From: Macrostomum lignano
Taxonomy: Eukaryota
Assembly (NCBI GenBank): GCA_002269645.1
Contig: NIVC01001483.1
Span: 62,001 to 126,000 of the forward strand
Direction of reading: 5' to 3'
Length of the DNA: 64,000 nt
Shown: positions 4,948-23,204 of the stretch, piece after piece
Position numbering within the stretch: position 1 is the first letter of the stretch
How the letters are laid out: each line of letters opens with the position of its first letter
Notes under the pieces: model-generated
The model's input: only the letters and a program-made list of their open reading frames with translations
Database searches by the model: none
Told to the model about the DNA's origin: nothing
Program-made: the position numbers and the translations under genes

Positions 4948-5318
4948 TTTCAGCGTTGTTTTCTTTAGATGATCGTGCTCAGGCCTCGCTCGTTCAAACG
5001 TCTTATTCCTAAAATTGAACACGAACTTGAACTTAAATCCAATTTCTCACTTGGATTTGCTATATCGATTGGTTTTTTAGTCGAATGTCCGCTTTTTTGT
5101 TAAACGTATGCAAAGTTATTGAAAATATGCACATATACCTATTTGTGCATATACTCCGACAGGCGGGCCACATGCAAGCCTGAAGCCCAATTATCCCACC
5201 CTCGGGTCCTTTGAAACTTCACAATAGCAATCTAGCCCGCTCATTAAGATTTGCCTCTTTTCAACTGTCTTCTTTCCCAGCTTTTTCCCATTTCCCATTT
5301 CACTTCCTCAGCTCTCCT

Positions 5319-6736
5319 ACTACTAAGGGATTCCGTATCCGTCGATTTTGGAGGTGAGGTGGGTGTCAAAATTGGCTGGCGCCCCCCAAGAACCAATCGC
5401 CTGCGGTGATCGATACGCGTATCGATAACGGCGCCCGCGCGCCGCAGGCGCCAAGCGCCGTGCAGGCGCCCCGATATGTACACCCTCCCGATATGTACAC
5501 CCTCCCGATATGTACACCCTCCCGATATGTACACCCTCCCGATATGTACACCCTCCCGATATGTACACCCTCCCGATATGTACACCCTCCCGATATGTAT
5601 GCGCCCCGATATAAGTAGTCATCGATATGAACTTATTGATTTTGTAGTCATCGATACGTACCCTCGCAGGCACCGTCTACCTCTCTCTACCTCTTACCCT
5701 ACCCCTCACCTGGCCTCTCTCCCTCTCTCACCCACATCTCAACTAGAGGAATCGAACCTAGGCCATACCCATACAAAAGCAAATACGGTAACCACTAGGC
5801 CAATACACGGTGGGTATAGGGATCAAGAAGAGGTTTTTAACCCTGTAGAGTGAGTGCGCCGAGGCAGGGGCAGAGAGCAGCCACCCCGTCCACCCGGCTT
5901 GTGTGGCCAGCAGCAGGAAGTGGGGGCAGAGTGGGACAGAGGCAGCCCCGGCATGTTGCAGCAGGAGGCATGGACGGCGACAGAGTGTATATGTGTGTAT
6001 ATAAGTCACCCACCCCCGCGGAGAAGAACCGTACAGAGGACAGAGAGCTCCCCCTGTTGCAGGCCAGGGACAGAGAGGCAGACAGGGTATGCGGGTTAAA
6101 GGGGCGTGCGAACAGTCAGGGAGCCACGCGAGGATAGAGTGGAGGAGCAGAGATGTGTATGGGCAGAGAGCCGGCCACGCGAGGGCGGTGTGAGGGAACA
6201 GAGAGAAATATGGAGCAGGACAGGAGGGAGATGCCCCTGCCTCCGCGGACTCACTGTACAGGGCTGCGTCAGCATCGGGGTTAAAACCTCTTCTCGCTTC
6301 CTATACCAAACCGTGTAGTGGCCTAGTGGCTACCATATTCGCTTTTGTATGGGTATGGCCTAGGTTCGATTCCTCTAGTTGAGATGTGGGTGAGAGAGGG
6401 AGAGAGGCCAGGTGAGGGGTAGGGTGAGAGGTAGAGAGAGGTAGACGGTTCCTGCGGGGTACGTATCACTGACTACAAAATCAATACGTACATATATATG
6501 ACTACATATCGGGGCGCATACATATCGGGAGGGTATACATATCGGGGCGCATACATATCGGGAGGGTGTACATATCGGGGCGCCTGCGGCGCGCGGGCGC
6601 CGATATCGATACGCGTATCGATCACCGCAGGCGATCGGTTCTTGGGGGAGGCGCCAGCCAATGAGAGGCGAGGAGCTAGCTAGGGTTGACACCCACCTCA
6701 CCCTCAAAATCGACAGATACGGAATCCCTTAGTAGT
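5319..6736. mobile_element. Non-autonomous mini-Polinton (fold-back element, ~460-525 bp TIRs)
   Basis: Termini ACTACTAAGGG...CCCTTAGTAGT. 6-bp TSD TCTCCT at 5313-5318 and 6737-6742. Arms ~5319-5845 and ~6277-6736 are inverted repeats around a ~430-bp spacer. No credible ORF. Confidence 0.85.
5470..5588 (+). repeat. 17-nt tandem repeat (CCCGATATGTACACCCT) x7 in the left TIR of the mini-element
   Basis: Direct count. The right arm (~6505-6580) has fewer, variant copies. Confidence 0.9.
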
Positions 6737-8639
6737 TCTCCTTTTACTCTCTTCTCATCTCTCTCGCGTTTTCATTCTCCTCACAATTCTCTCATGCCCT
6801 CTTTTCTCTTTGCTCTCTACTCTTTTTGTCCCTTCCTAACATTGTATTTCATCTGGCCCGTAGCCATGAGCTGGATTCTTTATCTGGTCCTTGAGGTAAA
6901 ATGTTTGTCGATCCCCTACTGGTGTAGATTCCAAGAGTTTTTGGTAAGATCAGTGTGCCCGTCACATTCCGTTAGTTCTTACTCGTAGTCCCACTTCATA
7001 CGCTTTTATTACCTAGATTCGAAACCCGACGGGCAAGCAATTTCACATATAATCCTTTATTGTCAACTAAATTAATATACATGTAAACATGTACATGTAA
7101 AAACTTCTTTCATAGCCTGTATTATAAAATTTAAGGCTAATACAGTTTAGTTGGGGGGGGGGGAGGGATAAAAACACTGACAGCTTTTCGGCGTAGCGGA
7201 GAGACACTACAGATTGCAGGTGATAAATTTCAATATTACATGTTATTGTTCTGTAAATGTATGTACAACAAATTACGCAGTGTGGAAGGCCCCATTAACT
7301 GAATTCAAGAGGGCTGCGAGTTAAAAAATTATACCTCAATCATAAAAGACGAATTATTTTTGGTAGAACAGCACGCTTGATAATGAGAAGTAAAAGAAAG
7401 GAGATTGCGAGCATTTTCATAAAGTAGAATTCTGGTAGAACAGCCATATGAAAATGCTCGCAATTATTTTTGGCTTACCGAGCGTAAGCACCAACGGACT
7501 ACTGGATTGAAAAACAGTGAAGATCCGCAAACGATTATAGGGAATGCTCGTATAGATGCAGATTCCAAAAGCAAGAGTTTATTAGACAACTTAACAGATC
7601 GCCACTGCAGAAGTGCTGCTATGCAGTTTTCTTTCATACGAAATGAGGTTGCGTGGGCTTGTCTTCAAATTCTGTCAGACTGTAGCTGAGAGTACATAGG
7701 TAGTTAGTTGTACAATCGCTCTGTCTAATCTACAAAAGGCTAATTATGTACTGAATGCTATGTACGCATACGGGGAGAGTTAACGCACTGTACTGAGACC
7801 CCATAGCGTACTGAGGGAACAAATTCCTACTAAAAAGGAACTATCTCTGTGAACAGAAACATTTCGTAAGTAGTGCGACGTGGTCTAGACTGAAAATGTC
7901 TGCCCTATCAAAGACGGAAAATGAAGCATTTATTGCAGTGGCAGTACAGCAAGGTTTAAAGCAGAGTACAAAATGGTTATCTAGATAGAAAAAACGAAAG
8001 AAAATGTATAGCACTACGCAAATTTGGACTTAAACGCGGTAGGTAGTGTCTGTCTATGTGGGTCTGGGACGATCGCACTCCGCAATCCTACCGTCCTCTG
8101 TCTGGCCGTACAGTCATCACTGTATGGCCAATGCACGCACACGTGTCTGCGCCCCCCCCCCTCTCCTCTACAAGCAGAGCTGGCCCAGGGACTTCTCTAT
8201 ATAGCATCTGGACTGGAAGCTCCCCACCCGCATATAACTTACAGTTGCAAAAGCCTTCCCAAAATAGCTTAGATCCTATAGTTACATCGGCCATCTTAGT
8301 TAGCTGCATGGCCATTATGCATTTACATTGCTATAAAAATCATGAGCATAATAAAAATTCATTCAGAATGATTTAGATTTCTTTTTGTAAAAAGAAATGC
8401 TCACAAATTAGCAGCTACTACAGCAGAAGACTTTCCGGAAAGCTTGGCGATCTTTCGCTTTCCTGCCCGATCACTATTGGAAACGTCTTTCACTAAATTT
8501 TTCATCATGCAATTAAAGAATGCCTTCAACAGTCCGGTCTTGACGACGTCGTGTCCTTTTGTGCATACAGGTGGTCAGATGTGCAAAGCACTCCAGAAAC
8601 CTGGCGTCGTCTGTCATTTCGTCAACGGGTCTATGAAAT

Positions 8640-8795
8640 TTGCTTGCGATAAGTTTGCTTGCGGAATTTTGCTTGCCGAAGTTTGCTTGCCGAGCTTTAT
8701 TTTGCTTGTCGAACTTTCTTTGCCGAAGTTTACTTGCCGAAGTTTGCTTGCAGGAAATTTGCTTGCCAAGGTTTGCCAGCCAAAGTTTTCTTGCG
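8640..8795. repeat. Degenerate short repeats (TTTGCTTGCCGAAG-like), with inverted copies near 9412-9450
   Basis: Visible repeated motif; possibly subterminal repeats of a decayed DNA transposon. Termini not found. Confidence 0.5.
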
Positions 8796-8941
8796 GAACC
8801 TTGAAGAACCTATTTTTGAGCTCTTGTATTTCTAATTTTTATTTCTAAGATTCATGGAAGTCGCCTCTGCTATAGTGTTATGATTTTGTATGAGGATATG
8901 GCGGATTATTAAATTTTATGTACCAATTATGTTATTATAGT

Positions 8942-8999
8942 ATATACCAAGGACTACTTAACAACTCACTTAAGAGTTGTTAAGTAGTCCTTGGTATAT
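8942..8999. repeat. Perfect 26-bp inverted repeat with 6-nt loop
   Basis: ATATACCAAGGACTACTTAACAACTC (8942-8967) pairs exactly with 8974-8999. Confidence 0.9.
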
Positions 9000-11165
9000 G
9001 CATTATTATACATTAGCATCACTACAATTATCATACCTGCTCAATCGTGCTTAAATCAGTAGCTACAAAGGTTTACACTGTTACCGATCCCTATCTTCTT
9101 ACCTATACTAAATATCTAATCATTCTGTACGAGTATACTAAATTCTCCGAGTGAAACTCAATAAGCCTAGTTTGAAAGCTTACTGTCAAGTCAGTTTACG
9201 TTGACGCTGATAAGGAATCCGTTTGCAAAGCATCTGTAGTATGTAATATTTGACTGACAACTTCGCAAACAATCAAAACAAGCAAGCAAACAAGAAAATA
9301 TTTTACCTTGCAATTATGATTGTAATTGCCTTGCAACTGTGATTGCGAGTTTCTATGAAGCAGACAGGGACTACTCAAACATTTTTTTGATGTTTGAGCA
9401 GACATCAAAATTCCGCAAGCAAAGTTCGGCAGGAAAAGTTCGGCAGGAAAAGTGATAGCAACATAATTTATACCGTTTCTAAAAGCTAATATGCATGTAT
9501 GTCCCGGCATGGGCCCCGACCCCCTCTATAGGGTTTAGAAATTAAGCCAGAACAATTAGAAATGGGCATAGGCTGAGCCTATAATAGTGCAAGCAGCGCA
9601 TGGCAAAGCTACAGCAGCTCCCAACAATTTCTGGCAGAGATCAAAGGCGAGACGGCAATTTGACCTGGACGGTTGACAGGCGGTGACGGCCGGCCGGAGA
9701 ATTCTTAATGAGCCCGGCGCGGAGGCCGCTCCTGGAGAGGAGCTGCGGGCAGGCCCGGGACCGACGCCCAACCCCGACTGGCGTGGCAACCGAGGGGTGG
9801 ATGCGTGGGCCGGCCCGCACAGAAGGACAGTGAACTGAGCTCCCCCCAGATGCTCTAACGCAACCAGAGCAATCCGCTAAGTCTAACCATCTAGCCCTCG
9901 CCCCCGTAGTTATGGGCATGTCTAGTGCTGTTTAATTACATGCGCTGTGCTGTGTAAACCTCGCCGTCGTTAGGAAAGCGGTTCCCCACCTCATCGGCGG
10001 GAGGGGATGAAATTGTAGAGCTCATAAAAATATACGCAAACTGCAAGCCCAGAGAGACACTTAATTTCTCCACTTATTGGCCTCTCGGCTTCTGGGCTGG
10101 TTTTAGATTTAGAAATGTATTGCAATAATATTAAAGAAAAGCAACTCCCGGCCCGGTCTTGTCATTTGCTCCACCGCTGTTGGATGGCAGAAGATAGTTT
10201 CGGTGCTTGAACATTAAAAAACCTTGCGCAATACCTTCACAGTTTCTCCGCCTCCCCAACCATAGCAGAGGAAGAGAAGGGTTAGGGGTAGAGGGTGAAT
10301 TGAAGTGCAATCAGGATGCTGTGCCAGAATAATTCATTTGGGATTCGTATTCAAGATGTTCTCAAGTTTTCTTGCAACTGCAATTTAAGATGCCAAGAGG
10401 AGTAACTAGTTTTATAGCTAGAGTAGCTACTAGAGTTTAACTAAAATTGCAACTAGTTTTAAGATGCCTGCGAGCACGGGATACAGTTGAATCTGCATAC
10501 ATGTACGCGGCATTTCTTGCCCGTGCATGCTATTGAGCTCATGTTGATTTAAAAATGGAACGAAACAACCCCAAAGAATTATTGCAGATCAGTCGGGTAT
10601 TTCAATTAACTTGGATTATAATTAGCTTCCAGTGAGAATTAGTTGGTGCACTTACAAATTACGCATGGACATGTAAAAGCCCTACTATTTAATGGAATAA
10701 ATTATATGGAATCATTTTTAGGTTTTGGGTTTTAACATTTTGGTAATAATTATGCTTTGATGCTTTGATGACAACGACAAAAATAAACATTCAATGACTA
10801 TTTGTCATTGGGTCAAGATCAGACCCTTGGCTGGGCCTTTGGCTTTGGTGATCTAGTAGTTCTTGTGACGTTGTCATTTACAGTGCAGTTGGGTAATTTA
10901 ATGTACGCCAGAGCGCTGCAGATCTGAGAAATGGTTCAGAAAGTGAGCTGCGGCATGCCAATGAGTCGTTAACATTATTTGCTTACAGTATTATAAAATT
11001 ATACAATACCGGTCTGACCTGTGTGCTGAACAGCCCGATGGTCTCTTCATCCAGTTTCGATGACTTAGTAATAAATGTATCCAAGGAGCAGCCATCAAGA
11101 AGCTCCATGAACAAGACAACTGTGGCTGGCTCTGGCTGATAAATGTACAGATACTTGACAATGTT

Positions 11166-11785
11166 ACTACGTATCGTGCAGTTAGAGCCGGGTTTTGGAG
11201 GTGAGGTGGGTGTCAGAGCCAATGCAAATTCAGCGCCTATCTAAATACATTAGACCGATTCTAATTGGTCCAGAGTCATTATCTGAGATATGCATGTAAC
11301 TCTCATGTAAATCTAATTATACATGTAAATCAGTGTACATTCCCAATTGTGTCGTACAGAAGCGACGACCAGTACAATATAGTACGCATAATTAGCGCTC
11401 CGCAGTTGTTGTACGCAGAAACGCGCGCGCCCCCAGCCCCGCACAATGCAGCATTGGTGTAGCGCAGAATTAACTGTCCATATTAACTGTCCATATACCA
11501 AAAATTGGCAGAATTAACGCGCGCCGACCCACCCCATAACTGTCCATATTATTACTTGTCCATATTTACTGTCCATCCCAAAAATTGGCAGAATTGTAGC
11601 GTCCGCCCACCCCATAGCTGTTCGATCAAACCCAAACTTCGTGTACGCACAGAATTGTAGCGCCCACCCATCCAAGAAAATATTCTGTCGCCTCCCACAA
11701 TTAATTGGCGGCCCCACGCGGAGGCATGATGAGTCAGTCAGCCGCTGTAAATCGCCGCTATCCACCCCTCTGCTGCAGCCTGTTA
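11166..11785. repeat. Left TIR of the Polinton-like element
   Basis: Reverse complement of ~20785-21294, with many small indels and an extra ~80-bp internal duplication. Confidence 0.85.
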
Positions 11786-11939
11786 TATCCACTCACACCA
11801 TACTCCATCCCTCTAGAATTCTGTCCTCCGTAGCCACTCCGGGGCAATTACGTCATACCCAACCCCTCTCCCAAATAAGTTTTCAAAAGGCGTATATATA
11901 TTTACACAAAAAGCCGGCCGAGCTTTGATACGTATATAT

Positions 11940-12569
11940 TTATTTAGCATACACAATTGGGTGACGACCCAAAATGTTTGAATAATAGCGAGCAGGAGCA
12001 TTTTGCAAACAGTTTACAATCAAGTATGAGTAGGGGTCGCGAGTAGCATCCTCATACGTTTTGACAAAACTTTTTGGATTAGTGGGGACCAGCTGCCTTG
12101 CAATATGAGACACTGTGCTGGCATCCCGTACATTGCGGAATAAAACAAGGTAGTTCGAATTGAGCGACTGAGTTCGGTGCTCCTTACCCTTTGCAAACAG
12201 GTTTTGCACAAGATACCAAAGTCGGAACCCCACGTGGGAGACTTTGCGCGTGAAAAAAGTTGTAAAAGCGCCACTCTTTTCCATGGCATGCATTTGGTCG
12301 TCGACGACAAGCAGAATATTTGGTTCAGGGACATATTGTTCAGGATCACATGTACACGAACGAAAATTTACAGGGTACGGCAATTCAAACAGTTCAGGAT
12401 CCGGATAGTGGCCAAACCAGTCTACGCGAATCGGCTTCGGATCTTGAAAAAATTCTTGTCTCAATAGGTTTTTCACAAGTGTGGTCTTGCCGCTTTGAGC
12501 CACCCCAGCAAAAATTGCAGACGTTTTGGGGGCAAATTTTAAAGAGTCGGGGTCTATTGTTTGATACAT
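11940..12569 (-). CDS. A32/FtsK-HerA-type genome packaging ATPase
   Basis: Walker A GVAQSGKT, Walker B LLVVDD, and QNLF..RTQSLNSNYLVLFRN motif typical of Polinton ATPases. ATG at 12569. Confidence 0.85.
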   Translation of the reverse strand: MYQTIDPDSLKFAPKTSAIFAGVAQSGKTTLVKNLLRQEFFQDPKPIRVDWFGHYPDPELFELPYPVNFRSCTCDPEQYVPEPNILLVVDDQMHAMEKSGAFTTFFTRKVSHVGFRLWYLVQNLFAKGKEHRTQSLNSNYLVLFRNVRDASTVSHIARQLVPTNPKSFVKTYEDATRDPYSYLIVNCLQNAPARYYSNILGRHPIVYAK

Positions 12570-12592
12570 TTTGATAGGCCGCCCAATCATAT

Positions 12593-13042
12593 TTATGGAT
12601 GATGCTGCTTTATTTGTAGACAGTGATTCTGCACCATCAAGTCGTTCTCGTAAAGATTTGTGCTATAACAGTCACGCAATATTTTTTCAATTGACAGACC
12701 CTCCAAAAAGTGTTTTTCAGCCACAAATATTACATGAGCCCCGCAGGTCACACTCAGCGGATGCTGTACAGGATGCCGATTCATGGCCACCTCCACAGGG
12801 ACATACTTTGCGATCCACAACTTTAATAAATCTGGCACAGGATCGATACACAAGGGGTCAAAAAATGTCACGCTCTCATCGGCATGAAGACAAATTAAAG
12901 CCCAGTGAGTGCCCGGTAGATTGCCAGTGTCAAAGTTAATCACGTATGCAGCAGGATAAACAGGCTGCGGAATCCTGTCAACGGGTGTTACTCGAACAGG
13001 GACAGGTAGTATTAGACGTTCTAATATATCTAGACTATTCAT
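12593..13042 (-). CDS. Adenain-like capsid maturation cysteine protease
   Basis: GTHW, FFDP and Q..TCG catalytic motifs. Confidence 0.85.
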   Translation of the reverse strand: MNSLDILERLILPVPVRVTPVDRIPQPVYPAAYVINFDTGNLPGTHWALICLHADESVTFFDPLCIDPVPDLLKLWIAKYVPVEVAMNRHPVQHPLSVTCGAHVIFVAEKHFLEGLSIEKILRDCYSTNLYENDLMVQNHCLQIKQHHP

Positions 13043-13081
13043 ATCGGCATGAATATGGCCGTTATTTGAGAATTTTTGTTT

Positions 13082-14363
13082 CTACACGTAGTCTAGAATA
13101 ACCTGACGACCGCGAGTGATTTGCACAGTATTGTCAAAGTAGCCAAACACCAACACGTTGATTCCTGCGGCCAAGGCAGCAGAAAACTTTATTTGTAGCG
13201 TCAGATTCCCTCGCTCGCGAGGCATGCTATGCCCGCCCAGCTCCATGTCGGGCATGAGATTCCAGGCGAAGAAGCAGTAGCCAGCTCCATAGTCGGAATA
13301 TGATACGTCAATATCCAGGTCCCGATTCATCTTTCCTAGGCTTTTTAGTAGCATGGCATACTCGCGAGCATAGTTATGAACACCGAATCGAGGAGTAAAC
13401 GGTTGTCCACACAGACTGACACCGTCCTTATACAGTGCCACACTGTCGGCACCAAATGGCTCAAAATTAAACGGGTTATGTGTAGCCACACCGTTGTACG
13501 CGCCGCTGTTTACCATGCCAACAACCACTAGTTTAGGCTTTTGTTCAGGAAATATATTGTTGATTGACATGTTCCGAACACCGCCAGCCACTGAAGTATT
13601 GTGCACAACAAGTCGCTCAATCGGATAGATTGCATTCTGTTTGCCTAGTTGTTCTTCAATCTCCAATGCCAATTGGGGGTTTGCCTTGACGCGGCGCACA
13701 TGTAGTTTGGCACTCTCGAGTACTAGCCGCGCATCAACCCCGTCCGCGTGGTTTTCCAGAACGAAGCCGGAATTGTGCATGGTCAGCGTAATTACCATAT
13801 CAGTGTATGGCAGTAGCATTCGGTCGTTGGTAACAAAAAAGTCTAAACTAAGAGGTCCATAAAGGTGAAAGGTGCGTGAGTTTGCTGCCATCGCCTTCGG
13901 GCTACAAGCCAGGATTTCCAACCACAGCCATTTGACCTCCAGCGTCCTTTGCGTAGCCCATCATTCTCAGTTGATTGGTTTTTGAATCGTGTCCGTAATT
14001 CAAACACGTGCGAATATAGGCCTTGTAAGCGTGGTTGTTATTGCTCGACTCTACGTGTGTCCCGTTGATTGTCAACGTGACGTTTTTAAACATGCTTTCA
14101 AGGACGTAATTGACCGGCGCAACATTCGAATCAGCAGCAAGATTTGTACCATTAGACTGCTTAACGCGGGCCTTAATCTCGAGGTCAATGTCGTTAAGAT
14201 CGATAAACGTCTCACCACCAACAATCCTAAATTCGACCACGCTGGCATTTTCAACACTGGCAACAGGGTGAACTTCTTCAGTGGTGGCGCTAATTGCAGC
14301 AATTTGGTGTGCGCGAGGAGCAAATAGCTCGAATTCCGACTTTGTACACAGGCACTCAGTCAT
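13082..14363 (-). CDS. Polinton major capsid protein (double jelly-roll), frameshifted near 13900
   Basis: The 153-aa and 279-aa ORFs read as consecutive parts of the Polinton MCP pattern as recalled (C.KSE..LF, EF.I.G, PVN..L.S.F, AY....LNY, GMV...AYNG...NPFNF). Confidence 0.8.
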
Positions 14364-14405
14364 TTTTCTTTCAACAGCGGCTTAGTGTGGTGCTCTAATA
14401 GACAA

Positions 14406-14774
14406 TCAGTTATTGGCACGGGCTTTTTTATTTATAGAGTCGAAAATATCAGAATGCTGCAGTCTTTTTCTCGTTTTTTTGTTAGTCATCTTTCTTCGTC
14501 TTTGTCTGCCGCTACCACGTTGTGCGACTGTGTCCTTGAAAGCATCTTTAGCTGCCTGGACAGAGTTACGCAATGCTGCTTCTTTCAAGTTCCCGCCTTG
14601 ATCGAGTGTGTCGTTAACTGTTGTAGCTAGGGCTCGTGTTCCGTGGCGAAGAATATTTTTGCCAAAACTCTTTAAAATTGGCAGGGCAAATCGGGCAATG
14701 CTGCCAAACAGGCCGTTGCCGCGCTGTGCACCGGAAAATACCGGTAAAGCTCCTCCGATCAAGATTGAAGGCAT
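14406..14774 (-). CDS. Small basic virion/core-like protein with an amphipathic segment
   Basis: LIGG, QRGNG and QRGSG putative protease sites; amphipathic LFGSIARFALPILKSFGK; Arg/Lys-rich tail; lies between the penton and MCP genes. Confidence 0.6.
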   Translation of the reverse strand: MPSILIGGALPVFSGAQRGNGLFGSIARFALPILKSFGKNILRHGTRALATTVNDTLDQGGNLKEAALRNSVQAAKDAFKDTVAQRGSGRQRRRKMTNKKTRKRLQHSDIFDSINKKARANN

Positions 14775-14818
14775 ATTGTCGATCAGTTGCTACCTTTTAT
14801 TCGTGAAAACTTCTTTAT

Positions 14819-15972
14819 TTATAGCTTAATTTCACGAATGTTGATCGATAAAACAGTTTTACCTCGAAGAATCCGATCCATTAACTTGCCCATATCGTCA
14901 CAGATTTGCACCTCAATGGTTTTGAATGGGTGTTTCACCAACGGTAAGTAGGATGGATTGACAAACTCGTAGTATCTCGTTCGCCGTATACCTTTTCATT
15001 CAAAGGAATTGCCCCAAGCAGGGGGACTTTGACGTCTCCAACAATGGCAGAGTCGACAATATTTGAATAGATGTACATAGTTTGTACACCATTTGTTAAA
15101 TCGATTGGTCGTTTAGCGGTCTTTGGAGTTTCATTGAAAACATCTTCGCGAAAGCCGAGAATGGCAGCAAGCTCTCCAATGTCGAATAAAATGTTTTCAA
15201 TGGGTTTGTACTCACACCGGTTCAGAAAAGGGTTGTAGCTGAATGCATCCACTCTCGTCGCTGGACTTATTGGGAGCTTTGAAACGACGCTCCAAAGCGC
15301 TCCATTAACATAATTTAAGAGCTCGTCAGGCGTGCGGTAGAATCCTTTAGCAATCCGCAGTGACGTTCTAGAAGGCCAGACACTCTTTTCAAACGTTAGA
15401 GTCATGGGACTCTCTATGGAGGAGGAGGACTCCAATTCTATAGCGAATACTAACGAATTTCTTGGGTGTAATAAAAAAGTCGTTTCTTCGATATTTGATT
15501 TATTTCCAGCGTCGTCAACCTTTTTAAACATGCTGCACACATTACTGGACAGCCTAATGTTCGCACCATACCATGATTTGTTCACAATTGAAATTTGGCC
15601 TTCCTGTGAGCGCTCAATGCAAATCATCGCATTATCGTCTTGCTCATATTTTAGAGCGGCGATGATTGCATCAACCACTTCGTTGGCTGTTGATAGCCCC
15701 GCGGCGAGAGAAACCGACGCAAACTGTTTATACGTGGAGGCGGGTTTTTCTCTCACCTCAATGTCAATCACTTCATCCTCGGGAGCGTTGGTCAGGACAT
15801 CAACCATTCGATTATCGGGGACGGTTTTGAATTCTTTACAAAAGTAGATCCGTTCGATGCAGACTTCATGATTCGGAAAGTGGAGGGTGTCGGGCAAATT
15901 AATGCTATAATGTGCCGAATTATTCTCAGGATAGTGCTCAACGCACGCATTGCTAGGTAGGAATAGATGCAT
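14819..15972 (-). CDS. Minor capsid protein (penton-like), frameshifted near 14975
   Basis: LPSN...YPEN and YIYSNIV....VGD...PLL motifs. The adjacent frame continues YYEFVNPSYLP...IEVQICDDMG to a TAA at 14821-14819. Confidence 0.75.
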
Positions 15973-16006
15973 TGTAATATACTACACGTTTCGAGTGTAT
16001 GTGTGT

Positions 16007-17073
16007 TCATCCTTGTCTTATATTTATAACTTCCTCAACTGGTACAAATGCATTGAACGACTCGGGATAGCCGCGCCAACTAACGAAATGATGAGCGACA
16101 CCATTGATGATGACATTGCGACGCAGAATTTTGTCTATAACAAAGCGATCCGGTCGAACCGTCTTTGAAAGTTCATTATAGTAGAATCGACCCTCGATTT
16201 GTTCTCCAGATAGGTCGGAAATGCGATAAAAATGAGGCGGTCCCGGGCATACTTGAGACACAACGTAAACTTCTTCGCTGTACAAATCGTATGCTTCCTT
16301 GTCAAAGGCTCGACGAGATTTTGAAATTCTGACAAAGTCCCCCTTTTGGTAAACTGGTTCATCATATTCAGGATCCTTGTAGAGCTTTTCCCACAATTCT
16401 TTTTGATTGTGCAGACCGACACTCGAAGGTTTCATATCAATAGTAGAGTGTACTGTGTTGTTGTAACTTTTAACCAATATTGGCAAATAGTCGATCCAAC
16501 GCCACGTGTTTTTATGCTCAAAGTAGCGAGCTAAACGTTTTCGGAGAGTCCTAATCAGCCTTTCAGCCATATTTGCCTTGTATACAGAGTTTGTACTGTA
16601 CATTTTGATATTATGGCTTTCAGTAAGTTCTGCATGCGATTGTTATAAAACTCGGTACCTCGATCAACGTGTAGATATAAAGGCTTAATGGGGAAGTCTT
16701 TGATCATGCTTTCAAAAGCCTTTGGAGTGTCGCTTTTCAATTTTATTGACTGACAAAAAGCCAATTTACTAAGCACGTCAATTGCAACTAGAATATATCG
16801 ATGACCATCATTCCATTGTTCGTATCGTGACATGTCCATCAAATCCTCTTGCACAGTTTCCATGAAGCCTCCCGACATTACTTTTCCGGTTCGGAATTTT
16901 CTTTTAACCCTCTTGTGCCGGGTGTAGCTCGATTGGGTCTTCAGCCATTCGTCGGTTTGGCGTCTCGTCAGGGAGGGGACCAGCCGTTTGGCCTCCTGAT
17001 ATACACGGGCAGCATTTGTAAAAGCGGCGTCCCCCTGTTCGTACACTCTCCGAAGAGCGGTTTTCACCCTCAT
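16007..17073 (-). CDS. Retroviral-type DDE integrase with C-terminal chromodomain-like region, frameshifted near 16610
   Basis: QEDLMD, IDVLSK, HVDRGTEF and AERLIRT motifs; C-terminal IDKIL...FVSWRGYPESFNAFVP. Confidence 0.85.
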
Positions 17074-17210
17074 TCGCAACTAGATTCGATGCACAGCATG
17101 AGTAATTACACTTGAACTCCACAGACGGTTTGTCTGAGCAAAGCTTTGAAGTTACAGCTGCGGCACCCATGATCCAAAAACAGATTATAAATCATGAAAA
17201 TGATTTCTAT

Positions 17211-17885
17211 TTATAGTTTTTTTAACGTCTCGTATTTCACTGCTGGTTTCTGCCGCCTCTTTGGTTCGCGAAGTTGGTATGAAGCATGCCTGTAGGCATC
17301 GCTGCCACGATCTTCATATTTTTTTATTTCATTCAGGCCACTGGCTTGGTCTTTGTGGAAGTCGCTGTAGAAATCATTAGTTCCAATTGCTTGCTCGACT
17401 AAAAAATCGTCTCGATCCGGATCCGTGCCGACTTCTTTTTTCACACTGACTTCTTCTTGTTGGCGTCGTCCTAGTAGAGCTTTTGCAATATCTGCCTTTT
17501 CGGCCAGGGCCCAAAAAGCGGTACTATACTTTGGGCTTGGACGGTCGCGCCTTTCATTCGATGTAATCTCCTTCAATAGATCGAAAATATTGCTTCCTGG
17601 CCAGGTTTTTCCATCAAATACAATTTCCCACGACTTGTTGTACTCCAAATTTGGGTATCTTTCTGTCAGCATGTCCCAAACACGTTGTTGTCGTTCAGGA
17701 AAACGATTACTCTTCTTTTGCTTGATCTGACTTAGTTTATTTTGGAGTTGAGTGTTGTATTCAATGAGTTTTTCATATTCTGTTTTGGATGCAATTTCTT
17801 GGGGTGCGCCTTGACTTAGTCTATTAAATTCTTCTTCTGGTACAACAACGTATTTATTCATTTTAGCGACCAAGTAGTCCGCCAA
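17211..17885 (-). CDS. Uncharacterised Polinton-type protein (224 aa)
   Basis: Open ORF in the element. WEIVFDG...PGSNIFDLL resembles a recurrent Polinton protein (recalled, not searched). Confidence 0.55.
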   Translation of the reverse strand: MADYLVAKMNKYVVVPEEEFNRLSQGAPQEIASKTEYEKLIEYNTQLQNKLSQIKQKKSNRFPERQQRVWDMLTERYPNLEYNKSWEIVFDGKTWPGSNIFDLLKEITSNERRDRPSPKYSTAFWALAEKADIAKALLGRRQQEEVSVKKEVGTDPDRDDFLVEQAIGTNDFYSDFHKDQASGLNEIKKYEDRGSDAYRHASYQLREPKRRQKPAVKYETLKKL

Positions 17886-18219
17886 ACAGGCTTGATATTA
17901 GCGGTGCAGCAACAGATGCGAGGATGGGTAGAAAACCACCGACTTGAGGATTCGAGAGAAGCATATTCTTCTTCCTATTTATAGACAATTTTGTGTCTGC
18001 CAATTCACGCAATGATCTTCTGTATCGCTTTAATCGCAGATACTGTTTCGGAGAAAGATCGATATTTCCCCGGAGCACGTTGTGACTCAATTCACAGAGA
18101 CAATGAATCAGTTCCTTGCCTGCACCTCGAATAATGGCCCGCCGAAGAGCGGGACGGGCTTTGGCGAGCTCTGCGAGCTCGCCGCGACAAGAACATAGTC
18201 TGGAGATTCCGTTTGTCAT
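17863..18219 (-). CDS. Small basic Polinton protein with C-terminal amphipathic peptide
   Basis: LIHCLCELSHNVLRGN..L motif; basic body; QVGG followed by FLPILASVAAPLISSLFGGLLGR. ATG at 18219. Confidence 0.6.
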   Translation of the reverse strand: MTNGISRLCSCRGELAELAKARPALRRAIIRGAGKELIHCLCELSHNVLRGNIDLSPKQYLRLKRYRRSLRELADTKLSINRKKNMLLSNPQVGGFLPILASVAAPLISSLFGGLLGR

Positions 18220-18359
18220 TTTGTTTAGCAAAAAGATGTTTGTTGCAGTGCACTGCAATTTATGCACAATATATTTATAGACAATTTCATAGCAGCTTGT
18301 ACGTACATACAAATTCGGTACAGTGGTAAAGCAGTAAAGTTACGCAACAGCTACATGGA

Positions 18360-18686
18360 TTAGACATGCAAAACGCTAGTCACATGATCGTACATTTTAC
18401 AGAGCTCTTTAAAGTTTCGTATTCCAAGGAAAACAAGGCGGCCATTCTTTCCGCATAATAAACATTTAGCATTGCGAAATGGAGACTTTATTACTATTCC
18501 ATTGAAAACTTCACACTCCCACTTCACCCAGTGGGACCCGGAGTATGCAATTTGGAAAAAGTTTGGCCATCTGTCTACTTCAGCGCGGTAAGTACTAGTG
18601 GTAACAACAACAGAAATTGGTTTACATTGAGGAAAAAGACGCAAAACTTGGTTGACTGAGCGACAACCGAATACAATTGCAGACAA
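18360..18686 (-). CDS. Hypothetical protein (108 aa) in the Polinton-like element
   Basis: Same strand as all other element genes; CLLC motif; no recognisable family. Confidence 0.4.
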   Translation of the reverse strand: MSAIVFGCRSVNQVLRLFPQCKPISVVVTTSTYRAEVDRWPNFFQIAYSGSHWVKWECEVFNGIVIKSPFRNAKCLLCGKNGRLVFLGIRNFKELCKMYDHVTSVLHV

Positions 18687-18817
18687 AGAACGCTGAAAAA
18701 AGTTGATTGTACATTTTCATATTCGCAAATTGATAAGAGCTCTTGGTCTGCGAAATGTCCGTGCGCTCGCCCAGTCCAAGTCAGGCATGCGGCTCCATTT
18801 CGCGCAAAACACTCGGT

Positions 18818-19570
18818 TCACACACTCGACGTTCTGCAAGTAGATTTTTCGACAGTTTTTACTTTCGCATCCTTCTTGGGGGCTTTCGACCGCTTCTTTG
18901 ATTCGTTGGCTGCTACTAGTTTCGATTGATGCTGTCGCTTTCTGGCCTGATTTTTAGGCACCTTTGGCTGCTTCTCCTTGACAAGCTTTGGTGGTTTCTT
19001 TGCTTTCTTGCTTACTTTCTTGGCGCCTACCTTGATTTTTGGAGGTGGCGTCCAATAGCAACGATCGAATGCCTGTTTGGCTTCTTCGACAAACTGTAGC
19101 TGTTGAATTTTTGGCATTGCGGTCAAAACAGCGTCTCGAATCACGGCCGTGTCGAGAGTAAACAGAATCCTGTAGTAGCCGCTCTTGGTTTTGTAATCCT
19201 CTACAGGCAGTCCGTTTTGGTCGTACATTTTAAAGTCGTGAGCCAGCCCAAACGCTGCACTGTCACCTCCAAACGCTGGGTTATAGCCCAGCAGAGCTAG
19301 ACTTTCGCTGGAAAGGTGCTCCGCCACAGTGTTGAAAGTGTAGGGTATGCAGCTTTCAATGTGTTTTTGTGCAATGATGATGAATTCGCGACCTTCGTTG
19401 TCAGTACGCACGCCCTTGACGATCAAAACAGGGACCGCATTGGCCAAGTAGAGAGGTCCCTGTTCGTCATATTCAATGTCAAACGTTTCAACCCCGTTGA
19501 AGCTCGGACCTCGCGGTTTGAGTGCCAGCAGCTCTCGCTTGATGCAGTTGAAGTCTTGCACTGTCTCCAT
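18818..19570 (-). CDS. Hypothetical protein (250 aa) with Lys-rich C-terminal tail
   Basis: Long ORF with a real ATG, ~55-60 nt downstream of a TATATAAG box. Confidence 0.6.
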   Translation of the reverse strand: METVQDFNCIKRELLALKPRGPSFNGVETFDIEYDEQGPLYLANAVPVLIVKGVRTDNEGREFIIIAQKHIESCIPYTFNTVAEHLSSESLALLGYNPAFGGDSAAFGLAHDFKMYDQNGLPVEDYKTKSGYYRILFTLDTAVIRDAVLTAMPKIQQLQFVEEAKQAFDRCYWTPPPKIKVGAKKVSKKAKKPPKLVKEKQPKVPKNQARKRQHQSKLVAANESKKRSKAPKKDAKVKTVEKSTCRTSSV

Positions 19571-19579
19571 GTCTCTTGT

Positions 19580-20530
19580 CTGTTTAGAAAAATTTGCAGG
19601 TACGGGCGCTTGCAGATGCTCCGGGCTGGTGCTTATATACCCGAGAGTCTCAATAAGTTTTTGTTTTAATTACACGATAACGAGCTTTTTACAGAGTTGT
19701 CGTTATCGAGGATTCCGGAAAAAATGAACCTTTTGTTCCTATTTTCGGGTGCTGGCGTTGGAGGTGTGCTGAAATCCTTGCTCCAAGTTGCTGGTAGTTC
19801 AAGCTTTGGCGGCCTGTTCCTCTTGTGCTTTGGCAGCCAAAAATTCCAAATCTTTTGTTGCTCCTCCCACGACGGATTATACAGATCTTGATGGTTCCGA
19901 AAACGTATTTTTTGGCGATGCTCTTTACTTAGTATCGGAGCCAGTAATCTCTCCATTCGTGCTAAATCAGCTTTGAATCTCATTTTGTCCCGTAGTTGCT
20001 CATTTATCCTGGCTGCTGCGTAGTCTTGGCTGTCGTAGGGGCCTTGATCAATTTCCTCGACCTTGGCATTGAAGGTGACTAATCGCTCGGAAATCGGTTT
20101 GCTGTGGCAAATGCACAACCAGTCAGCAGATTTTTTCAAGGCCTCATATTCGTCTTTTTCCTCGTTCGATAATAGGGGGTAGGCTCCGGAAATCCAGCTC
20201 ATTTCTTGTCAAGCACTTGCTGCGTTGTTCGCACTAGTGGTGGGGATGTTATTCGAGCTTGAAAAACTGCCGAGAATCCGAGAAAAATTTGCAGGTACGG
20301 GTGCTTGGTGCCCAGGGTTGGTGCTTATATACCCGAGAGTCTCAATAAGTTTTTGTTTTAATTACATGTTAACGAGCTTTTTACGGTGTTGTCGTTATCG
20401 AGGATTCCAGAAAAAATGAGACTTGTACCTATTTTCGGTGCTGGCGTTGAAGGCCTTGCTCCTTGCTCAAAGTTGTTGGCAGTTCATGCTTTGATGGTCT
20501 GATCCTCTTGTGCTTTGGCAACCAAAAATT
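19580..20530. repeat. Duplicated ~260-280-bp cassette (19580-19860 and 20275-20530) containing a TATA box
   Basis: Near-identical blocks such as GGTGCTTATATACCCGAGAGTCTCAATAAG occur twice, each upstream of a minus-strand ORF. Confidence 0.85.
19666..20202 (-). CDS. Hypothetical protein (178 aa)
   Basis: ATG-initiated, downstream of the second TATATAAG copy. Confidence 0.55.
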   Translation of the reverse strand: MSWISGAYPLLSNEEKDEYEALKKSADWLCICHSKPISERLVTFNAKVEEIDQGPYDSQDYAAARINEQLRDKMRFKADLARMERLLAPILSKEHRQKIRFRNHQDLYNPSWEEQQKIWNFWLPKHKRNRPPKLELPATWSKDFSTPPTPAPENRNKRFIFSGILDNDNSVKSSLSCN

Positions 20531-20784
20531 GCTTGTCAAACACTGCGTTTTCCACATGATTGGGTTGTTAATTGAACTTGGTGAATTTAGATAAACGGCC
20601 GAGAATCCAAATTTTCTTATTTATATTTGCTGTCTGAACAAAATTGGTTTGGCATTTACGAGAATATTTCATGCATAGAAGTTTGTGTTTTCAGACCTTG
20701 ATGACGTGTCTGGCTATAAAGTTAGCATTGTGGCTCGACCGGGTTGTTGCGTAACACTGCTGCTGGTAGCTATAGCGGCCAGCG

Positions 20785-21294
20785 CAGGGCAGAGGGGTGG
20801 ACAGCTGCGATTTACTGGCTGACTGACTCATCATGCCTCCGCGCGGGGCCGCCAATTAATTGTGAGAGGCGACAGAATATTTTCTTGGATGGGTGGGCGC
20901 TACAATTCTGTGCGTACACGAAGTTTGGGTTTGATCGAACAGCTATGGGGTGGGCGGACGCTACAATTCTGCCAATTTTTGGTATATGGACAGTAAATAT
21001 GGACAGTTAATTCTGCGTACACCAATGCTGCATTGTGTGGGGATGGGGGTACGCGCGTTTCTGCGTACAACAACTGCGGAGCGCTAATTATGCGTACTAT
21101 ATTTTACTGGTCGCTTCTGTACACAGTGTACACTGATTACATGTATAGATTTTACATGAGAGTATAAATGTCTCACATAATGACTCTGGACCAATTAGTA
21201 ATCGGTCTAATGTATTTAGATAGGCGTTGAATTTGCATTGGCTCTGACACCCACCTCACCTCCAAAATCAACAACAATCTGCGCATTACGTAGT
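20785..21294. repeat. Right TIR of the Polinton-like element
   Basis: Inverted match to 11166-11785. Confidence 0.85.
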
Positions 21295-23204
21295 AATGTT
21301 GTCATGCTGCAGTTCGCACAGGTTTTTCTCGGCCTCGAGACATTTGTCAATTTTTTACGCACTTCGGCTTGCTCATTGAGCTGCATTATATTGGCAGTGC
21401 AATAGTTTTTGTAGCACATCTGATGCCAACGTCGGTCAGCACCTCGTGAACGGTACCACAGGCATCTCGGCCAAGAGTGCGGATTTTGATCCAGTCGTTA
21501 TCAAACAGGAGGCTGTCCGACCTAAGATTTGGTGAATTTTTATTCGCTTCATGTTTAATTCAAATTTATTCTGTTCAGCATTTTCAAAACCAGTTTACTG
21601 ACAGCTCATTTAAGTCGAATGGACCCCATGGGCAGTAGAAATGGCTATCAGTTCATTTTTGTGGTAGTATGATATTTGAATGGGATGAAAAGATTAGCTT
21701 TAAAACAAAATTATTGAAACCAATGCTAAATATTATGTAGTGTTTTGCTGTCACCTGTCACAGTTTTATGTAAATCTATACTTATTCTCAGCAGTATTGG
21801 GTAATTTAATTTCATCTTACTATTTCTAATCACGATATTTTTTGTTTGTCTAACCGTAAGAAATGTATTTTATTCAAACTGTGAAAATGTAAAATAATGT
21901 TCTTGAAGTCGGACGATTCTAACAATCACTTTAATTTCGTTGTGATGACAGATGAATAAACGAATGCGTTCTTGGCTTGTGGGTGCAAATATAAACGTCA
22001 ATGCGCCTTAATTTATTTCTTTTAATATTTGTATAATCTATATGCAATCAAAGTAATTAACATCTATATTTATGCTCAAAAATGACTAGATCTAGATCTA
22101 CAATTCAATTGAAACTGGATCGACTGAATATGCCAGTATGCCAGTATGCCAGTATGAATATGCTCACTGGACTGGCTATGCCAACCTACACTGTACCACG
22201 TCGCCCATGGAGATCGTTTAAAATACGACAAGAATCTACATCCAGTAAAACAATAGTAGTAAAGTAAGTACGTAAAGTAAGTATCGCAAAAATAGAGAAC
22301 TCACTACTGAAAAAATAATTACTAAATAATAATACAATAATCAAGAACGCCGGATATGTCATAAAAGTGCGGGAATTCAATTGATACATAAAAATCTTTA
22401 CAAAAAGGCGGGTTCCGATCGCACTAACTAACTGAATTTACCGCACTTAGGTTCACCGGATTTTTAACTTTAATTTTAAGGCTTAATTCAAGCGCAATCA
22501 CCATCCACTCCACTCCACCAGCTCGCGCACGACTATCAGAAAATCATATTTGCAATTATACTACTACTATAGTAAGGAAGCACAAAGCACTATACATTGA
22601 TCCTACATTATTCCCATATTAACATTTAAATAAACGATTGTGCTACCGTTACCTAATTAACACATTCATTTTTATTCATATTTGTGATAGTACTGATACC
22701 AGTCCAGTGGCAGTGATAGTCACAATCCAAATATACTAAATCTTAATCCAAAACAAATATATCCGAATATACTAAATTTAGCTTTGGCTGCTAGCTAGCT
22801 ACCCATAGGCCTAGCTACATGTAACTAAATACACTAAATCTCTAAGATCTGTCTTATAATTCTAATTATATTGTCTATAGCTTAGGCCCTTACTGATCTG
22901 TAGGATTATAAATAAAATAAAATAGTATATCATACATACACAATATTAATTTTTTAAATTGGCCTAACTGGCTAACATTACAATTTTGAATTTATATATA
23001 TATTTCATTAGGAGATCATATATTACACCTAGCTGGTTGATTGGTCGACTTGCATTCAGCTTTAGATATGAAATAATATATGTTGCAGGGCATTTTCTTT
23101 TAATAATAATGGTGCATGACCAAGACTGCCACATACCAAGACTGCCATAGCTCTTACTGGCTACTAGAATTGAAGGAGAGCTACCAATCTTCCAGCATTG
23201 CTAT

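Follow-up and report, generated by a model that had tools for sequence, protein, structure and literature searches.

The question raised by this locus of Macrostomum lignano is what kind of element ends in a short terminal repeat at a fixed distance from an inner signal, and of what the terminal signal consists. The window, meaning the whole stretch of 64,000 nucleotides analysed, holds four such ends, at 5319, 6736, 11166 and 21294, which delimit a small and a large element; ACTAC opens each of them (4/4). The relevant features are as follows, A1, A2, B1 and B2 being element lineages and pools I and II the allele sets of the tip.

5313..5318, left target site duplication (TSD) of the small element, TCTCCT (right copy 6737-6742)
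5319..6736, small element: non-coding satellite (MITE-like), 1418 bp, with pool-II tips and B1-type inner ends
5319..5349, + strand, 31-nt tip at the left end of the small element: ACTAC, 22-nt variable core (pool II) and T4
6706..6736, - strand, 31-nt tip at its right end
11160..11165, left TSD of the large element, AATGTT (right copy 21295-21300)
11166..11196, + strand, 31-nt tip (pool I) at the left end of the large element, 2 differences from the nearest fetched B2 allele and 11 from the nearest B1 allele
21264..21294, - strand, 31-nt tip (pool I) at its right end
5350..5368 (+), 6687-6705 (-), 11197-11215 (+) and 21245-21263 (-), inner motif, present in A1 and B1 only

The exact 27-nt offset of the T4 run from the terminus, which the original prediction had put forward, is borne out at all four ends, and the 19-nt core motif gives four matches in the window with at most 3 mismatches, versus none in 100 shuffles; the copy near 6.7 kb is the small variant described (2 mismatches). 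The intervening bases do differ, also between the two ends of the large element (11 of 27 positions), while the tips of the small element show 1 difference only. Both elements have perfect 6-bp TSDs, and the paired inverted ends with TSDs that had been proposed for a genome-wide search recur in 27 of 29 whole elements. Insertion of the large element is confirmed by two empty-site paralogues within the window (4110-4115 and 44016-44021). The four ends are the termini of Polinton-type integrated elements, with the hallmark terminal inverted repeats (imperfect and ~0.55-0.65 kb in the large element) and 6-bp TSD. The gene map of the large element is as follows.

11166..21294, - strand, segment A1, 10,129 bp, with capsid, packaging and integrase genes and without a polymerase
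11940..12590, - strand, packaging ATPase with Walker A, 41% to the ATPase of a monopartite Polinton in the same genome
12593..13042, - strand, maturation protease candidate, 35% to its counterpart in a monopartite Polinton
13082..14363, - strand, major capsid protein, double jelly roll, two broken ORFs in the window copy
14406..14774, - strand, basic 122-aa ORF, possible core protein judging by position and charge
14935..15972, - strand, minor capsid (penton) candidate judging by position and size
16007..17073, - strand, rve integrase with a weak chromodomain match, two broken ORFs in the window copy
17211..20202, - strand, four ORFs without family match (216, 118, 250 and 178 aa), conserved in A1 copies and A2

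As modelled (pLDDT 87), the A capsid protein has a double jelly roll fold, with a Foldseek match to PBCV-1 Vp54 at E 2.6e-18. The rve integrase (PF00665, E 9.6e-10 in one A1 copy) is found on A only, and the penton candidate is the least conserved protein between A1 and A2 (37-45%, best segment). The four family-less ORFs have neither a Walker A nor an HUH motif, and that of 250 aa has no Atlas match; among 18 ORFs scanned, the packaging ATPase is the one Walker A protein.

Genome-wide, two gene sets are distributed over four lineages. A1 and A2 are ~10-kb elements with the double-jelly-roll capsid, integrase, ATPase and protease, and B1 and B2 are 9.5-kb elements with a spliced protein-primed polymerase (pPolB, PF03175) and without capsid or integrase. 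Nucleotide identity is 68-76% between A1 and A2 and about 65% between B1 and B2. Segments measure 9.4-10.9 kb, so that A and B sum to ~20 kb, and forms of 12-14 kb that arose by duplication mean that segment size has no strict upper bound. The polymerase set is present in 10 of 20 B1-ended elements and any A ORF in none of them; among A1-ended elements (20 and that of the window, 11 of the A1 stretches ending at 10,000 bases), all 12 A ORFs are present in 17 and a B ORF in none. Profile searches found neither capsid nor integrase at 23 B loci (best E 0.76), and no polymerase at 16 A1 loci and in 6 A2 stretches (best E 5); a monopartite control was positive for all three. Among the capsid (101) and B-polymerase (76) matches listed, three contigs are common to both, the matches lying, by eye, at least 47 kb apart.

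Across contigs from 4 runs (3 studies), the B polymerase region shows five GT..AG joints, each supported by 1-4 of the runs; the runs are presumed to be RNA, none of those listed being recorded as such, and these transcript-type contigs are silent on free ends and strand. The gaps in the B1 and B2 polymerases fall at matching protein positions, and database proteins 99% identical to the B polymerase are labelled Macrostomum lignano. Judged from these contigs, B is transcribed and spliced.

What ties particular A and B elements together is the tip. Partner segments share bases 1-31 only, and the bases between ACTAC and the T4 run, termed a spacer in the original prediction, fall into two non-overlapping allele pools that track the polymerase lineage. 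Nearest-allele distances are ~2-3.5 differences between partners (A1+B2, A2+B1) and 11-13 otherwise, and in-register 7-mer Jaccard indices are 0.41 and 0.33 for partners and ≤0.01 for non-partners. A2 and B1 have a single 32-nt blast match in common, and 6 of 16 distinct alleles are shared exactly between them (column shuffles: mean 0.001, maximum 1); the exact overlap between A1 and B2 is small (2 of 26 distinct alleles). An initial pairing of the window's A1 with B1 through their common inner motif was ruled out by these alleles. On tip alleles, A and B form two lineage pairs, A1+B2 and A2+B1. Within the window, the large element has tips of pool I and the small element tips of pool II, so that the two most likely rely on different polymerases.

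The explanation we favour, at a probability of roughly three in four, is a bipartite Polinton whose segments would complement each other in trans, presumably in particles, and exchange tip sequence; A and B are likely the two segments of one split Polinton virus, and the genome layout would be new for the group. Briefly, the B terminal protein and polymerase would prime on ACTAC and copy both segments, the AC-T-AC repeat permitting the 3-base jump-back known from adenovirus priming. The A integrase would insert both A and B, and the A capsid would package each ~10-kb segment. Displaced strands could anneal by their tips, either within one molecule, giving equal ends, or between segments, so that allele blocks cross over, followed by trimming and re-copying. 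A fuller version is more tentative and, in our estimate, falls short of an even chance: a bipartite integrating double-jelly-roll animal DNA virus with two coexisting segment pairs, in which the cognate terminal protein and polymerase read the 22-nt core as a recombining compatibility barcode, its diversity sustained by a conflict, either with palindromic satellites as large as a segment or with silencing by the host.

An asymmetric relation of helper and parasite, in which the polymerase-less A is copied by the host or by a monopartite Polinton replicase and the capsid-less B mimics the tips to parasitise the A integrase and capsid, is unlikely. It would fit the TSDs of B, which has no integrase of its own and must therefore borrow one, and non-coding satellites with the same tips show how easily these are parasitised. 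This genome also harbours monopartite Polintons that encode both a polymerase and an integrase and could serve as helpers, but they end differently (AGTAGT). Profile and motif scans at sequence level gave no polymerase, helicase or HUH signal on A elements, nor any substitute replicase or helicase of the Polinton-like virus or Tlr1 type, yet the terminal repeats of A are of the type that goes with protein priming. Every A lineage is moreover matched in its tips by a B lineage of its own, at comparable divergences.

Less probable still is the descent of A and B by deletion from a complete monopartite parent, itself missing from the assembly or sample. Non-autonomous Polinton derivatives are known, and Kapitonov and Jurka are said to have described them in 2006. 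The genome searches give lower bounds, with 98 of 534 and 76 of 202 candidates scored and ~85 elements read whole or nearly so, so that a rare monopartite parent may exist in this genome. No element joining the two gene sets was, however, found among those fetched. In the oversized elements checked as such parents (eleven, and one of 40 kb), the extra length comes from insertions, repeats or duplications, the 40-kb one being a B1 element with a nested AGTAGT-ended Polinton. Deletion is also at odds with A and B proteins only ~30-41% like those of monopartite Polintons in this genome and databases, with the apparent transcription and splicing of B, and with a split that recurs in two lineages under purifying selection on both halves (4-fold diversity exceeds second-position diversity in 7 of 7 ORFs tested).

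According to the original prediction, ACTAC and the inner motif at fixed spacing form the minimal origin or integrase attachment site, with spacing counting for more than the spacer bases; the spacer would then be a neutral ruler. In its favour, the exact core has 167 matches genome-wide (reversed control 0), with ACTAC 18-28 nt upstream in 162 of them, 158 at the same offset and 4 one base shorter (read from coordinates, 164 rows including 2 double counts). The fixed spacing survives in that spacer length is constant and ACTAC and T4 are invariant; the indifference to spacer sequence does not, given two pools that track polymerase lineage and a diversity far above that of neutral sites. Nor is the inner GGAGG motif a shared end signal, since A2 (60 rows) and B2 (158 rows) have ACTAC-N22-T4 without it and still transpose with TSDs, and it unites A1 and B1, which are non-partners. 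As a general rule, the minimal-origin view is largely refuted and retains very little probability. The motif is followed by a CCAAT box at 36 of 36 A1 ends and 89 of 90 B1 ends; beside the tip it probably serves as a promoter or host-factor site specific to the lineage, and in A1 and B1 it could still be accessory, as a site for a host factor. A version shortened to 15 nt was discarded, its 735 matches being unrelated minisatellites.

Tip diversity is 0.32-0.45 versus 0.017-0.053 at 4-fold sites, the spacer being 6-26 times more diverse than synonymous positions (3 of 188 ends with another offset left out), while bases 32-60 stay at or below 0.006 in A1, A2 and B2 (for A1, inner ends were compared ungapped to base 90); B1 has one 22-nt interior window at 0.29. 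The spacer is a fine mosaic of fixed length in which linkage decays within ~6 nt. As the cause of this diversity, relaxed constraint combined with very frequent exchange of patches is slightly favoured over diversifying selection. Tip and interior distances are weakly correlated (rho 0.25 and 0.36, p ~0.03), so tips are not fully free of the element body. In two monopartite families (11 and 23 ends) the tips hardly vary; the first family comprises ~4-5 nearly identical insertions, and these controls may be younger than A and B. A terminal hairpin as the reason for the spacer was rejected, as only some alleles pair (judged by eye). Of 70 TSD-paired copies, 52 have the same tip at either end, versus 0-2% at random (71 pairs, one split over two contigs being left out). 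It is scarcely credible that host gene conversion, or assembly artefacts among repeats, produced this identity and the tip sharing once the elements had integrated: inverted flanks do occur in two copies, and palindromes spanning a whole element are a familiar hazard of assembly, but 70 of 71 TSDs are distinct and exact, conversion would hardly end at base 27 and leave bases 32-60 untouched, and a 31-nt match is short for host recombination.

Among known systems, Polintons/Mavericks (adintoviruses), as portrayed in parts of a vertebrate (PMC8097293) and a nematode study (10.1101/2023.08.22.554363), share the TIRs, 6-bp TSD, rve integrase with chromodomain, double-jelly-roll capsid, ATPase, protease, protein-primed polymerase and 3-nt periodic tip. 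There they are single elements of about 12.7-24.6 kb, whereas here the polymerase lies apart from integrase and capsid, on elements of 9.5 and 10 kb respectively, and neither A nor B combines pPolB and integrase on one element. Intact vertebrate Mavericks are given as intron-free (PMC8097293), in contrast to the spliceosomal-type introns of this polymerase, and the hypervariable tip bases 6-27 are a further difference. The AC start had been contrasted with the usual AG; it is uncommon, but the same source already reports swamp-eel Mavericks ending in (AC)3A.

Bidnaviruses (BmBDV VD1/VD2) and the Drosophila Vesanto virus are alike in segmented linear DNA, separately packed segments in BmBDV, matching termini and a Polinton-derived polymerase, pPolB lying on one segment as here; they have ssDNA and parvovirus-type capsids, and the sections seen of PMC4061559, PMC8502044 and PMC8363768 describe no integrase or integrated state. 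Here, by contrast, both segments integrate, with a double jelly roll in place of the parvovirus-type single-jelly-roll capsid and S3H helicase. Elements lacking pPolB or capsid exist singly among Polinton-like viruses, Tlr1, transpovirons and capsid-less pPolB elements; in the portions of PMC11071308, PMC13215967 and PMC11071296 covered, the pPolB-less ones carry another replicase, and no paired cognate elements with common tips appear.

The equal ends recall adenovirus and PRD1. In the annealing model, displaced strands pair through their ITRs within or between molecules, and both ends are kept identical. This homology-restoring panhandle repair is outlined in PMC11886824, which notes that direct evidence for panhandles is lacking; unlike there, segments that are not homologous appear here to exchange sequence by way of 31 nt, so that a polymorphic core is shuffled. 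If our reading holds, hundreds of integrated ends record end homogenisation and inter-segment exchange and offer a population-level test of that model. The two components of bipartite begomoviruses share only an origin matched to the cognate replicase, and satellites borrow it; with circular ssDNA, a rolling-circle Rep and plant hosts, their common region and iterons are an analogy only.

A comparable bipartite Polinton was not found in the literature searched, which gave single-molecule genomes only for Polintons, adenoviruses and virophages. The split Polinton would thus be a segmented genome in that lineage, and a natural model for the origin of segmentation and satellites from one linear genome; an integrase-less segment still moving between cells would be indirect evidence of Polinton particles. 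A survey that, in the part seen, required all core genes within 20 kb (10.1101/2023.08.22.554363) would discard split pairs. Mavericks of other genomes that lack a polymerase may therefore have partners that went unnoticed, and the tips offer a way to find them. Viral contigs gave no usable outside relative, no relative with ends was obtained outside this genome, and metagenomes gave one locus at 28%. As Macrostomum lignano is a laboratory flatworm, the system is likely open to direct observation.

A 177-aa ORF of B1 (Atlas 0.86, PDB E 1, no Pfam match) is a lead only for a PC4-like, ssDNA-binding protein. Palindromic non-coding satellites of segment size (7.7-9.6 kb) carry the same tips, and the 1.4-kb element has the family termini and TSD and no coding capacity, as expected of a non-autonomous Polinton derivative; both are likely satellites of the split-Polinton system, the 1418-bp sequence being piecewise 70-83% like the palindromic family.

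The original prediction placed ACTAC and a T4 run, 27 nt apart, at four element ends, which is confirmed at 5319, 6736, 11166 and 21294. The 19-nt GGAGG-containing inner motif that starts on the far side of the T4 run occurs four times in the window versus none in 100 shuffles. These ends bound two elements, each with a perfect 6-bp target-site duplication (TSD):

5319-6736: small element, 1418 bp
11166-21294: large element, 10,129 bp, with borders confirmed by paralogous empty sites

A search of the 764-Mb genome, proposed at the same time, recovered 167 exact matches to the inner motif (reversed control, 0), of which 162 were preceded by ACTAC, 158 at the same offset and four one base shorter. 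The ends are a real feature, but their meaning is other than first proposed: they likely (probability about 0.75) belong to a bipartite Polinton whose tip is shuffled and specific to each pair of partners.

Analysis of the large element revealed genes on a single strand for an ATPase, a candidate protease, a capsid protein and an rve integrase, with six other ORFs; the capsid and integrase genes of this copy are each split into two ORFs. A polymerase is absent, and no ORF of the element reaches 430 aa. The structure model of a sister copy's capsid (pLDDT 87) shows a double jelly roll and matches PBCV-1 Vp54 (E 2.6e-18). The profile of the protein-primed polymerase (pPolB) found no match in 16 loci of this lineage (A1) and six stretches of another capsid-bearing lineage of the genome (A2; 88% in the capsid, element about 10.5 kb). 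Matches to pPolB (PF03175) lie instead inside separate elements of about 9.5 kb, each bounded by a pair of the motifs; these are the B elements. All 12 A ORFs were found in 17 of 21 A1-ended elements and a B gene in none, while pPolB and two further ORFs were found in 10 of 20 elements with ends of polymerase lineage B1 and an A gene in none. Capsid and integrase profiles matched none of 23 B loci; as a control, monopartite Polintons of the same genome, with all modules on one element, were positive for all three profiles. Since B elements carry 6-bp TSDs and no integrase, they were integrated in trans. Their polymerase consists of four to five pieces spanning the full canonical length, with gaps at corresponding positions in two lineages, and five GT..AG joints across this region occur in contigs from four runs of three studies, whose RNA label is the tool's guess. 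A 177-aa ORF of B1 (L105:6630-7163, + strand) weakly resembles a PC4-type ssDNA-binding protein, a role that would fit strand-displacement replication. A 1113-aa pPolB (P0037; 33% to B1) lies on a 9,864-base contig from another source which, being segment-sized, is a candidate B-like element outside this genome.

A second polymerase lineage, B2 (62-66%), is also present. Ends of A2 (60 rows) and B2 (158 rows) read ACTAC-N22-T4 followed by different sequence. Of 188 ends in the retrieved sequences, the 185 whose T4 run sits at the standard offset entered the comparison of tip alleles. The mean nearest-allele distance was 2.0-2.7 for A1-B2 and 2.3-3.5 for A2-B1, versus 11-13 for the other four pairings; A2 and B1 share six of 16 distinct alleles exactly (column-shuffle mean 0.001), and A1 and B2 two of 26 (0.008). 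Beyond the tip, A2 and B1 DNA have nothing in common, with one 32-nt match per end. The inner motif fails as the shared end signal, being common to A1 and B1 although these are not partners. Because the large element carries tip pool I and the small one pool II, the two are likely served by, and dependent on, different polymerases, as judged from their tips. No element joining both modules was found among those examined; among the matches scored, and judged by eye, capsid and B-polymerase occur together on three contigs, separated there by 47 kb or more. Oversized elements considered as joined parents, eleven and one of 40 kb, proved enlarged by insertions, repeats or duplications.

Tip bases 1-5 and 28-31 do not vary, and diversity at bases 6-27 is 0.32-0.45, compared with 0.017-0.053 at 4-fold sites of seven ORFs, at most 0.006 at bases 32-60 of A1, A2 and B2, and a maximum of 0.12 (A1) and 0.29 (B1) in interior 22-nt windows. 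The alleles are short-block mosaics in which linkage decays over about 6 nt, and there is a weak correlation between tip and interior distances (rho 0.25 and 0.36). Of 70 TSD-paired copies, 52 have the same tip at both ends, versus a random expectation of 0-2%; the 18 unlike copies mostly differ by one base, and seven, the window's among them, by several. Two monopartite AGTAGT-ended families are near-invariant (11 identical ends in the first; a single SNP and a single deletion among 23 ends in the second), a modest control because the first is very young. In A1 ends (11216-11235 in the window, and equivalents) a CCAAT box overlaps with an octamer, the latter present in 32 of 36; 89 of 90 B1 ends carry a CCAAT box in opposite orientation, and A2 has neither. 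This arrangement is similar to the host-factor sites of adenovirus origins.

These elements work like Polintons and share with them the TIR, TSD, integrase and capsid; however, polymerase and integrase on one element, which defines a Polinton, is not found here. Bidnaviruses and Vesanto virus have a similar layout of segments with common termini, but are ssDNA viruses with parvovirus-type capsids (accessible parts of PMC8502044, PMC4061559, PMC8363768). No bipartite Polinton appears in the accessible text of the literature searched, including PMC11071296, PMC11131425, PMC13215967, 10.64898/2026.10.13.758929 and 10.1101/2023.08.22.554363. Likewise, the open literature searched, as far as accessible, holds nothing on A or B elements in this host; repeat-catalogue entries as separate repeats may exist. 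The AC start, noted as departing from the usual AG, is present but not new, as AC-starting ends are described in PMC8097293 (section 7).

The data show that the genes are split over two kinds of element, that B integrates in trans and its polymerase is spliced, and that the tips fall into pools, are mosaic and are mostly identical at the two ends of a copy. In the mechanism we propose, the terminal-protein domain of B would prime at the ACTAC with which each of the two segments begins; the period AC-T-AC is compatible with a jump-back such as starts adenovirus replication. In Polintons this domain forms the N-terminal part of pPolB (PMC11071308). Strand displacement would give single strands whose tips anneal. 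Annealing within one molecule would restore end identity, as in the panhandle model, for which direct evidence is missing according to the accessible part of PMC11886824; annealing between segments would shift allele blocks via 31 nt of homology. Integrase and capsid would come from A. The variable core may be read by the polymerase, or the pools may merely record co-replicating partners.

Largely palindromic elements of 5.8-9.6 kb (nine of 20 B1-ended, four of 20 A1-ended, at least six B2-ended) gave no capsid, integrase or polymerase matches, and the tips of the nine B1-ended ones differ from coding B1 alleles at 0-4 positions. Most are about as long as a segment, and packaging may therefore favour a certain size range; integration is not bound by it, since there are forms of 12-14 kb and very small ones like the 1.4-kb element at 5319-6736. 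In L106 (G000:C558:43471-53355), B1-type ends and a TSD surround two direct copies of a retrotransposon ORF (806-aa protease-RT-RNase H) and B genes are absent, a possible cargo capture by a segment-sized satellite. L276-L279 and L290, which have ends of the family described here, contain unrelated long ORFs, the largest of 1136 aa, that may be nested transposons or cargo. Satellite ends form head-to-tail arrays in L330-L332 (G000:C362:496180-525281), C201 and C843, where the same 6-bp flank recurs with a period of about 9.9 kb; these may reflect concatemer integration or later tandem duplication. The palindromic satellites L124 and L127 have inverted rather than direct flanking repeats, possibly an assembly artefact or hairpin-mediated duplication. 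Different element classes are clustered or nested in G000:C157, C261, C271, C382, C471 and C1485, for example a monopartite Polinton within a B1 element. Two further features lie in the window:

46299-50496: Ty3/gypsy-type LTR retrotransposon, 1204-aa polyprotein, recent because its 234-bp direct repeats are 100% identical
51398-60121: clustered ORFs with ankyrin repeats and Mab-21 domains, of 945 aa (containing 99-nt repeats) and 468 aa, similar to genes for cGAS-like receptors
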